64,000 nt of DNA from Scenedesmus sp. PABB004 (lineage: Eukaryota). A program made the translations under genes and the position numbers. The stretch is taken from positions 496,001-560,000 of the forward strand of contig JABVCE010000003.1 in assembly GCA_014905635.1 (NCBI GenBank), in the 5' to 3' direction. Below are positions 94 to 6,442 of the stretch, piece after piece; positions within the stretch are counted from its first letter, which is position 1, and each line of letters starts with the position of its first letter. The notes under the pieces were generated by a model. The model did no database searches, was not told where the DNA came from, and was given only the letters and a program-made list of their open reading frames with translations.

Positions 94-3000
94 GCGCTTC
101 TGCCCCGTCATCCGGTGCATCAAGTTCCACGGCAACCAGGAGGAGCGGGTGCGGCGCCGCGCGCGCGCGCAGCTCCTCGCGCGCGCTGCGCGCGCCGCGC
201 GCCCCTGCCTCCGCGCAGGCCCGTCACTCCCTCCCTCCCTCGGGACCGACCGACCGACCTCCCTCCCTCCCCCTCCCTCCCTCCCTCCCCCTCCCCTCCC
301 GCGCGCGCCGCGCGCCGCCGCGCGCGCCGCGCAGGAGGCCCAGAAGCTTGCGATGAGCCCGGGCGCGTTTGACGTGTGCGTGACGAGCTACGAGATGGTC
401 ATCAAGGAGAAGGCCCACTTCCGCAAGTTCCACTGGCGCTACATCATCATCGACGAGGCCCACCGCATCAAGAACGAAAACTCACGCCTCTCGCAGGCGC
501 GCACCGAGCGGGCGGCGGGGGAGGGCGCGGGAGCGGCGCGGGGGCGGCGCGGGGGAGGGAGGGCGCGCGGGGCTGGCGCGGTGCAGCGCAGGCTGCGCGG
601 GCGGGGCGGCTGACGTGCGCGCCGCCGCGCCCTGCCCCCCCCCCCCCCCCCAGGTCGTGCGCCTGCTGCGCACCAACTACCGCCTCCTCATCACCGGCAC
701 GCCCCTGCAGGCGCGCCCCAGCGCGGCGGGGCGGGGTGTAGCGCGGCGGGGCGGGGTGCAGCGCGGCGGGGCGGGGTGCAGCGCGGCGGGGCGCGGCAGG
801 GCCCACGGCGGCGCCGGGGCGGCCGGCGGCGCGGGGTGCAGCGCGGCGGGGCGCAGCGCGCGCCCGGCCCCCCCGCCGCCGCCGCGGGGCCCCGCTGCCA
901 CACCGCGCCGCACCGCACGAGCGCCGCCCACACGCCACGCCAAACACCGCACCGCAGAACAACCTGCACGAGCTCTGGGCGCTGCTCAACTTCCTGCTGC
1001 CCGAGGTCTTCAGCAGCAGCGAGAAGTTTGAGGAGTGGTTCTCCCTCGGCGATGGCGGCAAGGAGAAGGAGGCGGAGGTCGTGCAGCAGCTCCACAAGGT
1101 GCGCGCGCGCGTGTGGGGGTGGGGGTGTGGGCGGGGGGAGGCGGGCGGCGCGGCGGCGCGCCTCGCGCCGCCTCGCGCCGCCGCCCTGCCGCCCGCGCGC
1201 GCCGCGCGCCGCCACCGCCCGCGGCGCCGCCGCTGACCGCACCGCGCCGCCGCGTCCGCGCAGGTGCTGCGCCCGTTCCTGCTGCGGCGCGTGAAGAGCG
1301 ACGTTGAGCGCGGGCTGCCGCCCAAGAAGGAGACGATCCTCAAGATCGGCATGAGCGACATGCAGCGCAAGTGGTGCGCGCGCGGGGGCGGGCGTGCGTG
1401 GGTGTGTGGGTGGGTGGGGGTGGGGGCTGGGGGGGGCTGTGGGTGTGGGTGGGGGTGGGGGTGTGGGTGTGGGTGGGGGTGGGGGTGTGGCGGGGGCTGC
1501 GGCGGGGTGTGCCGGGGGTGCGGCGGTGTGGGGCGGCAGCAGGCGGCCAGCGGGGCGGCCGCGCCGCCGCGCCGGCAGCCGAGCCCCGCGGCGCCAGCCG
1601 CTGCCGCGCGCCGCCGCCGCCCACGCGCGCTGCCGCTCCCTGCCGCCGCTGCCGCTGCCGCCGCCGCGCCCGGGCGCAGGTACGCGGCGCTGCTGCAGAA
1701 GGACGTCGACGCGCTCAACGGCGGCGCCGACCGCTCGCGCCTGCTCAACGTGGTGATGCAGCTGCGCAAGTGCTGCAACCACCCCTACCTCTTCCAGGGC
1801 GCGGAGCCGGGCCCGCCCTTCATCACCGGTGCGCGGCGCCGCGGCGCGGCGTGGGGCGTGCGGGGGTGGATGGGTGTGCGTGTGTGGGTCTGGGTCTGGG
1901 TGTGGGTGTGTGGTGTGGCGGGTGCGCGGCGGCGCGGCGGGCCCTGCGCCGCGCCGCGCGCCCGACCACCCTGGTGCCCCCCCCCCTCCGCTCCCCCGCC
2001 AGGCGACCACCTGATGGAGAACAGCGGCAAGATGGTGCTGCTCGACAAGCTGCTCAAGCGCCTGCAGGCGCGCCGCCGCCGCCGCCGCGCGCCGCCGCCG
2101 CGCACCGCCGCCGCGCACCGCGCGCCCTGCCCTGTGACGCCCAACGCCCCCTCCCCATCGCTCAACCCCACCCGCCGCCGCCCCGCCCCCGCGCCCGACT
2201 CCCAACCCCGGCCCCTGGCGCCTGTGGCCCGTGTGGAACCCGCCCCGCCGCAGGAGCGCGGGAGCCGGGTGCTCGTGTTCAGCCAGATGACGCGCATGCT
2301 GGACATCCTGGAGGACTACTGCCAGTACCGGGGCCTCGGGTACTGCCGCATCGACGGCAACACCGGCGGCGACGACCGGGAGTACATGATCGACGACTTC
2401 AACGCGCCCAACAGCTCCAAGTGAGGCCCCCGGGGGGGCGCAGGGGGGGGGGGCAGGGGGGGGGGGGAGCGAGGGAGGGAGCGGTTGTTGGGGGGGGGGG
2501 GCAGGAGGGCTGAGGGCGGAGGGCGAGTGCGTGGGAGGGGTGCGTGGGAGGGGTGCGCGGGGGACCGCGGGCGCGGCAGCGGCGGGGCCGGGGGGCGCGG
2601 CGCCCTGAGGGAGCGCCGCCGCGCCGCCCGCCGACGCCGACCCGTGACCCGCCCCGCCCCCCTCTTGCCCAGGTTCATCTTCCTGCTGTCCACGCGCGCG
2701 GGCGGGCTGGGCATCAACCTCGCGACCGCCGACGTCGTCATCCTCTACGACTCCGACTGTGAGCGCACCCAGCACGCCCAGCACGCGCAGCACACGCACC
2801 CGCGCCACGCGCGCACGCGCGCGCGCATGCGCTGGGCTGGGCTGGGCCGGCACAGGGGCGGCGCGGCGCGGCGGCGGGCGCTCACGCCGCGCGTCGCCGC
2901 TGCGCCGCCCCCTGGGGTCGCGCAGGGAACCCGCAGATGGACCTGCAGGCCATGGACCGCGCGCACCGCATCGGGCAGAAGAAGGAGGTCCAGGTGACCG

Positions 3001-6000: not shown

Positions 6001-6442
6001 CGGTGCGCCAGGTTTGACTGGTTCTTCAAGAGCCGCACGCCCCAGGAGCTCTCGCGGCGCGCGGAGACGCTGATCCGGCTCATCGAGAAGGAGATGGAGG
6101 ACGAGCTGGTGCGGCCGCGCGGCGCGCTGGGTGCCGCGCGGCGCGCGGGGGGCCCGGCGCCGCGGGGCCCGGCGCCGCGCGACGGCCGGCGCCCGCGCGT
6201 GCCGACGCCGCGCGCGCTGCGCGCGCGCGCCGCCGCAGGCGCTCGCCAACCCCGAGGCCGCGAAGAAGGGCCGCGGCGGGCCGCGCAAGGTGGGGAGCAA
6301 GGCCAACCTGAGCGGCATGGACGGCGGCGCCGGCGCGAGCGCGGGCGCTGCCACGACGAGCGCCGGCGCGCCCGCCGACAGCGGCAGCGGCCGCAAGCGC
6401 GGGCGGCCCAGCACGGGCGGCGCGACCGCCAGCGGCAGCTGA
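94..6442 (+). CDS. ISWI: ISWI-family SNF2 chromatin-remodelling ATPase (CHR11/CHR17/SMARCA5-like), 5' end outside window, 21 exons visible
   Basis: Spliced exons give [103 protein letters not shown], then HAND-SANT-SLIDE-like [10 protein letters not shown] and [10 protein letters not shown]. Stop TGA at 6440-6442. All 20 introns were traced with in-frame junctions. Confidence 0.97.
721..856 (+). repeat. Intronic 20-bp G-rich tandem repeat (GCGCGGCGGGGCGGGGTGYA)
   Basis: Units start at 721, 741 and 761, with partial copies at 781 and about 831-856, inside ISWI intron 711-957. Confidence 0.85.

Follow-up and report, generated by a model that had tools for sequence, protein, structure and literature searches.

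GC-AG introns after CAG or AAG exon ends are predicted at high frequency in a very GC-rich genomic window of a chlorophycean alga

GC-AG introns, which begin with GC instead of GT, average 1.2% of introns over 121 plant and green-algal genomes (PMC6310983). Passages of another study describe T to C conversions of orthologous donors in mammals and formulate a rule for such introns: the other donor positions are kept closer to the consensus, which compensates for the T to C change, and the (A or C)AG end of the exon pairs with the 5' end of U1 small nuclear RNA (snRNA) (PMC2490688). Much higher proportions are described in two groups of algae. Of 241 junctions mapped by hand in the haptophyte Emiliania huxleyi, 56% are GC-AG, and the GC/GT ratio in expressed sequence tags is ~60/40, an abundance that passages of that work ascribe to the G+C content of the genome (65%); gene predictors that expect GT are reported there to mis-call genes (PMC4028052). 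In the pelagophytes Aureococcus anophagefferens and Pelagomonas calceolata, 14-17% of predicted introns are GC-AG, which is attributed to high G+C content, and the low-GC relative Aureoumbra has 0.32% (bioRxiv 10.1101/2024.10.30.620910). Our literature searches, whose scope left subscription journals and supplements (e.g. the per-species table of PMC6310983) largely outside, yielded no account of abundant GC-AG introns in a green alga. Here, we describe a stretch of 64,000 nucleotides of Scenedesmus sp. PABB004 (contig JABVCE010000003.1, positions 496,001 to 560,000 of the forward strand; hereafter called the window), in which 34 junctions fixed by protein homology in four genes (ISWI, SF1, RNF123-like and EFHB) comprise 13 GC and 21 GT donors.

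As in E. huxleyi, a GC-rich composition is combined with GC donors that rival or outnumber GT donors and with an acceptor that stays AG. E. huxleyi belongs to Haptista, however, its genome has 65% G+C compared with ~80% in this window, and its junctions were confirmed by reverse-transcription PCR and expressed sequence tags, whereas ours are predicted from protein homology. The CAG or AAG exon-end rule seen here has no counterpart in the available passages on E. huxleyi (PMC4028052). The pelagophytes likewise combine a raised GC-AG share with high G+C content, but they are stramenopiles with few introns per gene, and their share, based on gene prediction, lies below 13/34. Animal and plant GC-AG introns resemble the present ones in being U2-type and in keeping the remaining donor positions closer to the consensus; they account for under 1-1.2% of introns, compared with tens of percent among the junctions fixed here. 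While their donor consensus is AG/GCAAGT (a slash marks the exon-intron boundary throughout), the present introns open with GCGCG (C at +4), and compensation is visible on the exon side, at positions -3 to -1. A pattern known from other GC-rich algae is here extended to a green alga, at a more extreme G+C content.

The window begins within the ISWI gene, the 5' end of which lies outside it. The part present contains introns of 118-333 bases and encodes 841 residues, corresponding to the C-terminal three quarters of an ISWI-type SNF2 ATPase. The spliced product is collinear over its whole length with 12 ISWI proteins from green algae, the exon at 335-496 is ~89% identical to such proteins (83-91% when fragments are counted as well), and the matching proteins bear the signatures PF00176, PF00271, PF09110 and PF09111 (SNF2 core, then HAND-SANT-SLIDE), all of which assigns the gene, by homology, to the ISWI subfamily of SNF2 ATPases. 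The nearest full-length matches are chlorophycean (Tetradesmus, two transcriptome entries and one EukProt entry). Judged from its closest protein relatives, which are Sphaeropleales, the source alga is chlorophycean and extremely GC-rich. Every 2-kb bin of the window has 77-84% G+C (~80% overall); the ISWI exons have 66%, with 97.7% at third codon positions (GC3), and the introns 86% (A 6%, T 8%). The gene and its predicted GC-AG introns are as follows.

94..6442, + strand, 3' part of an ISWI (SNF2-family) chromatin-remodelling ATPase gene, 21 exons and 20 introns, stop codon at 6440-6442
497..653, + strand, ISWI GC-AG intron, phase 0, CAG/GCGCGC, SRLSQ/VVRLL, spliced alignment, no GT candidate within reach
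711..957, + strand, ISWI GC-AG intron, phase 0, CAG/GCGCGC, TPLQ/NNLH, 16/16 junction residues identical to homologue P0006
2068..2253, + strand, ISWI GC-AG intron, phase 0, CAG/GCGCGC, RLQ/ERGSRV, spliced alignment
3286..3403, + strand, ISWI GC-AG intron, phase 0, AAG/GCGCGG, QGAK/VNKED, spliced alignment
4147..4479, + strand, ISWI GC-AG intron, phase 0, CAG/GCGCGC, EYYKQ/VLKTG, spliced alignment
4657..4865, + strand, ISWI GC-AG intron, phase 0, CAG/GCGCGC, LDDQ/GLSAEE, spliced alignment
5245..5364, + strand, ISWI GC-AG intron, phase 0, AAG/GCGCGC, TYSK/VFWAR, spliced alignment
5518..5746, + strand, ISWI GC-AG intron, phase 0, AAG/GCGCGC, QELK/IAYG, spliced alignment
5881..6011, + strand, ISWI GC-AG intron, phase 2, CAG/GCGCGC, WRF-R-FDWF with split codon AG/G, spliced alignment

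An earlier note on this DNA had claimed twenty ISWI introns, nine of them with GC donors that all read AG/GCGCG after an exonic AG, and GT donors with varied exon ends. Our exon model, built by reading the sequence, was tested with a purpose-written spliced protein-to-DNA aligner in which GT and GC donors carry equal penalties, with the closest homologue, P0006, as the reference. The aligner reproduced all 20 junctions (score 3511), nine of them with GC donors at 497, 711, 2068, 3286, 4147, 4657, 5245, 5518 and 5881, and 19 of the 20 are gap-free within 8 residues, the exception being the last GT junction. The model of the last intron was corrected in one detail, to 6109-6238 with a GT donor. 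All nine GC introns read (C or A)AG/GCGCG and end with a C-rich tract and CAG, so that the earlier description holds and can be refined to CAG or AAG. The 11 GT donors, mostly GTGCG followed by C or G, come after the exon ends CGG, AAG, GTG, CCG, CAA, ACT, CAG, CGG, GAG, CCG and CTG, as varied as had been stated; exonic AG thus precedes 9/9 GC donors compared with 3/11 GT donors (Fisher p=0.0014).

The nearby-GT alternative, which the same note had raised for these nine donors, was run as a GT-only alignment. The score fell by 356 units, from 3511 to 3155, and indels of 5-8 residues became necessary at each of the nine GC sites, in otherwise conserved blocks. Sliding the boundaries of the GC introns by one or two bases yields only GG..CA or CG..GG ends; GC-AG is therefore the only recognised splice type that fits. 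In the alignment with the 12 green-algal proteins, the junction residues fall in conserved blocks, with two local irregularities: four more distant homologues are without one residue just upstream of the 3286 junction, and three Chlorella-group proteins have a one-residue insertion past that at 4147. A previous junction finder based on tblastn high-scoring segment pairs missed short exons and made wrong calls, and the spliced aligner was used in its place. At the level of predicted introns, the GC donors of ISWI are confirmed.

Outside ISWI, junctions were fixed in three genes, in their conserved parts. This added four GC donors, and a fifth intron, in a HisA gene, is probable; the latter is not included in the tally of 34 junctions.

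62170..62317, + strand, GC-AG intron of the SF1/BBP gene, phase 0, AAG/GCGCGT, 5/5 homologues, gap-free, SF1-HH and KH profiles abut
62911..63114, + strand, GC-AG intron of the SF1 gene, phase 0, AAG/GCGCGC, 4/5 homologues, gap-free
34508..34594, + strand, GC-AG intron of the RNF123/KPC1-like gene (SPRY ... U-box), phase 0, CAG/GCGCGG, GIQQ/IGWATL, 7/8 homologues, gap-free
59526..59614, - strand, GC-AG intron of the EFHB/FAP21 (ciliary) gene, phase 0, CAG/GCGCGC, FAP21 spacing, ab initio P=0.994
48954..49038, + strand, probable GC-AG intron of the HisA (HISN3-type) gene, CAG/GCGCGC

In SF1, the fifth homologue at 62911, P0181, chose a GC donor 6 bases downstream, with a gap. The GT donors of this gene are at 61593 (4/5 homologues), 61928 (5/5), 62537 (5/5) and 63664 (2/5). 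A junction near 63300 was left out of the tally: three of the five homologues place a GC donor at 63304 with a gap, and the ab initio model described below prefers CCG/GTGCGCGC at 63296. For the RNF123-like gene, seven junctions were kept, each agreed upon by 4 to 7 homologues; P0249 gave none that was usable, and >50 inconsistent calls outside conserved blocks, mostly GC with arbitrary exon ends, were dropped. Around its GC junction at 34508, 10-13 of 16 residues are identical, the SPRY profile continues across and the ab initio model gives P=0.998. Its GT donors are at 34687, 37440 and 38943 (7/8 homologues each), 37701 (5/8), and 35898 and 38156 (4/8 each). In EFHB, three open reading frames (ORFs) match residues 34-147, 157-227 and 229-266 of the Chlamydomonas FAP21 chain (6u42_7K); the third match is weak alone (E 0.3), and the GC donor at 59614 is placed within one residue. 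As for HisA, 14 consecutive residues identical to residues 23-36 of PDB 9fcf_A fix the acceptor, and the donor comes from the ab initio parse; the short exon upstream of 48954 has no PDB match. The earlier expectation that GC donors lie well above the usual ~1% is thus borne out in the window, at 13/34 in four genes, and extends beyond ISWI.

The exon end distinguishes the two donor types. CAG precedes eight of the 13 GC donors and AAG the other five, whereas AG precedes 7/21 GT donors (Fisher p=1.6e-4). GAG precedes none of the 13, although it is the commonest xAG codon in ISWI (75/177; p=0.0013), and position -3 therefore counts too. On the intron side, positions +3 to +5 are G, C and G in 13/13 GC donors, which all read GCGCG. 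Relative to the consensus, GC donors are thus closer on the exon side and mixed on the intron side (+3 G and +5 G kept, +4 C and not A). This context may stem in part from local mutation pressure or from a recognition preference. Across the 34 donors, +2 is T in 21 cases, C in 13 and never G or A, while the introns are 42% G. With M for A or C and Y for C or T, the donors are distributed by context as follows.

MAG/GYGCG: 13 GC, 2 GT
MAG with another intron start: 0 GC, 4 GT
not MAG: 0 GC, 15 GT

Thus, +2 is C in 13/15 donors (87%) within MAG/GYGCG and in 0/19 in all other contexts. The former proportion, from small numbers, approximates the share of C among the pyrimidines of intron sequence, C/(C+T) = 0.85. 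Such agreement would be expected with near neutrality between T and C at +2 in this context and strong selection against C in all others. Phase 0 applies to 12 of the 13 GC introns, presumably because a GC3 of 98% leaves exonic AG practically only to phase-0 AAG or CAG codons or to phase-2 AGN codons; an A at -2 must come from xAG codons (phase 0) or AGN codons (phase 2) and would hardly be possible in phase 1. Apart from their donors, the GC and GT introns of ISWI are alike, with mean lengths of 192 and 190 bases, G+C fractions of 0.87 and 0.87 and similar C-rich 3' ends.

At such G+C content, prokaryote-style ORF callers read through introns, and public protein collections consequently contain 'proteins' made of an exon and a translated intron. 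These can be used to infer the donor dinucleotide in relatives: where an ORF runs from an exon into a phase-0 intron, V as the first intron codon stands for GTN and A for GCN. The comparison of orthologous introns that the earlier note had proposed was carried out in this manner. At the site orthologous to 497, the 120 ISWI matches listed include 47 read-through ORFs, 46 others being spliced or intronless, and the first intron codon is V in 44 of the 47, with one A, one E and one C. The A occurs in P0005, after Q, in a protein whose exon is 89% identical. The sole read-through ORF at the site orthologous to 711, P0012, has V (GT). In SF1, the relative P0139 reads K/A (GCN) at the 62170 site through an in-frame intron, and read-through relatives have V at 62537, where the donor is GT here as well. 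These data suggest that the introns are old, with GT as the common state, and the C at +2 looks like a derived state, present here and in a small number of relatives. A scan of metagenome contigs with the ISWI alignment, made with poor low-complexity patterns, returned only two distant loci, L001 and L002 (28-32% identity), which were not used.

We think it likely that strong GC pressure has made GC-AG introns of the ordinary U2 type very common here. GC-biased mutation or gene conversion would replace the T at +2 of 5' splice sites by C. Such a C would persist only if the remainder of the donor sufficed for recognition, with an exon ending in CAG or AAG and an intron continuing with GCG (+3 to +5); the exon end (-3 to -1) would pair with the 5' end of U1 snRNA and so compensate for +2. 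Outside this permissive context, selection would keep the T. Both the direction and the cause of the +2 change, as well as recognition by an unaltered spliceosome, are what we infer from the pattern. The earlier note had proposed a 'shifted 5' splice-site code', possibly with an altered U1 or U6 snRNA or U1C. The role of the exon end is supported, in that GC donors occur only after exonic (C or A)AG. A shifted code with altered components is not needed: a stronger consensus in the rest of the donor is the published rule, pairing with a conventional U1 5' end predicts the requirement for CAG or AAG, and the high GC-AG shares of other GC-rich algae are put down to base composition. A search of the whole 64-kb window against Rfam at the gathering threshold gave no match, so no snRNA gene lies there.

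Several points weigh against this explanation or limit its reach. Splicing at the exact GC sites is deduced from protein homology, and the share of 13/34 comes from conserved parts of four genes in 64 kb. The +4 position is C in 13/13 GC donors compared with 14/21 GT donors (A in 6; p=0.03); plain U1 compensation would favour A there, and the invariant C thus speaks against an account based purely on closeness to U1. A possible GC donor without exonic AG occurs in EFHB at 59969 (- strand, GTG/GCAAGT), in the junction upstream of exon 59845 (59957-59990, - strand): the FAP21 spacing (chain residues 148-156) fits it best, with a GT at 59972 and a GC at 59957 as rivals. If real, it would be an exception with intronic compensation (U1-complementary AAGT at +3 to +6) and not exonic. 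The GC donor of P0139 sits in an intron that is not GC-rich, so that recent GC pressure need not lie behind every GC donor. Finally, our ab initio model called many GC donors without AG, most of which we judge to be false.

This ab initio gene model was trained on ISWI only and does not read the exon bases at donors. It recovered 13/13 independently fixed donors in SF1 and the RNF123-like ligase. Its GC calls vary with the prior, amounting to 91/179 introns at a 50% prior and 38/160 at a 1% prior, and an expectation-maximization estimate over 106 confident introns gave a GC share of 0.48. We rejected these shares as estimates: 41 of the 106 introns are in-frame and stop-free, 23 of these 41 are GC calls, and they are perhaps low-complexity coding sequence. 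The call at 24143 is likewise doubtful, since it cuts out a stretch that by eye resembles a helicase motif. Among 65 frame-obligate introns, the model called 20 GC donors (8 after AG), 35 GT donors (5 after AG) and 10 ambiguous ones, and it overcalls GC. We do not take these calls as a measurement; over the whole window they would agree with GC donors making up tens of percent.

The same body of evidence bears on four other explanations. An altered 5' splice-site apparatus, through a change of the U1 5' end, the U6 ACAGAGA box, U1C or the Prp8/U5 contacts, might read C as well as U at +2, which we regard as unlikely. Such a change would account for the near saturation of C (13/15) in MAG/GYGCG and for C, not A, at +4 in all GC donors, and the proportion of 13/34 greatly exceeds the mean of 1.2% over 121 plant genomes (PMC6310983). 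Were C read like U, however, GC would be expected after any exon end, and the strict need for CAG or AAG, with 0/19 GC elsewhere, fits a conventional U1 that has lost its pair at +2. The GT donors here also appear to keep the Chlamydomonas-like GTG(C or A)G form, which would speak for an unaltered apparatus. A specific form of this idea holds that C and U are functionally equivalent at +2 within MAG/GYGCG by virtue of a co-evolved change in the U1 5' end, U6 ACAGAGA, U1C or Prp8, and that the +4 C is part of a new lineage-specific donor consensus and not a by-product of mutation bias; we hold it to be just as improbable. The GC donors could also be artefacts, namely assembly or polishing errors that read T as C, or misplaced junctions. 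At 86% G+C, a wrong model would readily come upon one of the many GC dinucleotides, and our ab initio model demonstrably overcalls them. Nevertheless, gap-free alignments through highly conserved stretches pin down all 13 positions to the residue, random errors would not hit only the +2 position of MAG-preceded donors, and two independent assemblies of relatives (P0005 and P0139) show GCN at two of the same sites, which makes this explanation very improbable.

Nor do the introns seem to be of a distinct kind. Introners are known in some algae, and the uniform MAG/GCGCG ends would suit a young class derived from an introner-like transposon that carries its own GC donor and targets AG/G. However, all-against-all blastn of the 20 ISWI introns gave only GC-rich low-complexity matches of 17-55 bases, irrespective of donor type, the two classes agree in length and composition, the 497 position is common to dozens of other green algae and the 62170 position is common to P0139; we give such an origin very little credence. 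A U12-type (minor spliceosome) or other non-U2 class would be suggested by the non-GT donor, one hallmark of unusual intron classes. The U12 donor motif is an extended ATCCTT-like sequence, which by eye is unlike the 13 GC donors, all reading GCGCG followed by C, G or T, and the 3' ends consist of a C-rich tract and CAG, as in the GT introns of the same gene, so that this assignment is extremely unlikely. Ordinary U2-type GC-AG introns under GC pressure remain our preferred explanation.

Sequence tracts were also noticed in the ISWI introns, at 1380-1500, 1860-1920, 3780-3910 and 5660-5740: G/T-rich runs of the GTGGGTGTGGGTGGGGG type on the + strand and, in another intron, the C/A-rich complementary type (CCCACACACCC). 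The intron at 711-957 contains tandem units of ~20 bases (GCGCGGCGGGGCGGGGTGCA), and that at 149-334 contains (CCCT)n. It is possible that these tracts form G-quadruplexes.

Using codon statistics trained on ISWI together with Pfam, we found at least a dozen further genes in the window. They include genes for GIP1-like, RING/DUF1232, Dicer-like, IDM1-like acetyltransferase, epimerase, RNF123-like SPRY/U-box ligase, DUF629, HisA, B9/MKS1-like, prolyl 4-hydroxylase, EFHB/FAP21 and splicing factor 1 proteins. Because stop codons are rare at 80% G+C, the 64 kb also hold 532 stop-free frames of >=60 codons. The SF1/branchpoint-binding protein gene (61400-64000, + strand), which encodes SF1-HH, KH, zinc knuckle and RRM domains, runs off the end of the window; a splicing factor gene itself thus has two GC-AG introns. 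In the RNF123-like gene (33700-39250, + strand), the C-terminal U-box (PF04564) is split over the exons ending at 38942 and starting at 39096, where RNF123/KPC1 proteins have a RING finger at the C-terminus. The Dicer-like gene (14900-25000, - strand) has helicase, Dicer dimerisation and two RNase III domains according to Pfam and several dozen predicted introns; a search with its exon 20024-20362 (- strand) among proteins of <=2000 residues gave one 222-residue fragment, and no Dicer junction is in the tally. The N-terminal exon of the prolyl 4-hydroxylase gene gave only spurious TPR matches against PDB. Long repeats of the CAG/CTG type are found at 36980-37045 (+ strand, RNF123-like region) and at 40533-40649 (apparently intergenic); depending on the frame, they would encode poly-Gln, poly-Ser or poly-Leu.

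If confirmed genome-wide, these observations would place a case from the green lineage beside the haptophyte and pelagophyte ones. In annotation, a large proportion of the genes in such genomes will be modelled wrongly by gene finders tuned to GT donors, as illustrated by ISWI, which gains nine indels under the GT-only model. The most interesting part is the MAG/GYGCG rule with its apparent saturation, which ties donor type to intron phase and codon usage (GC3 98%) and provides a sharp, testable rule for the tolerance of the spliceosome to GC. The window may thus be regarded as a natural experiment on 5' splice-site recognition, in which the T to C change at +2 has apparently gone near saturation only where CAG or AAG, together with GCG, carries recognition.

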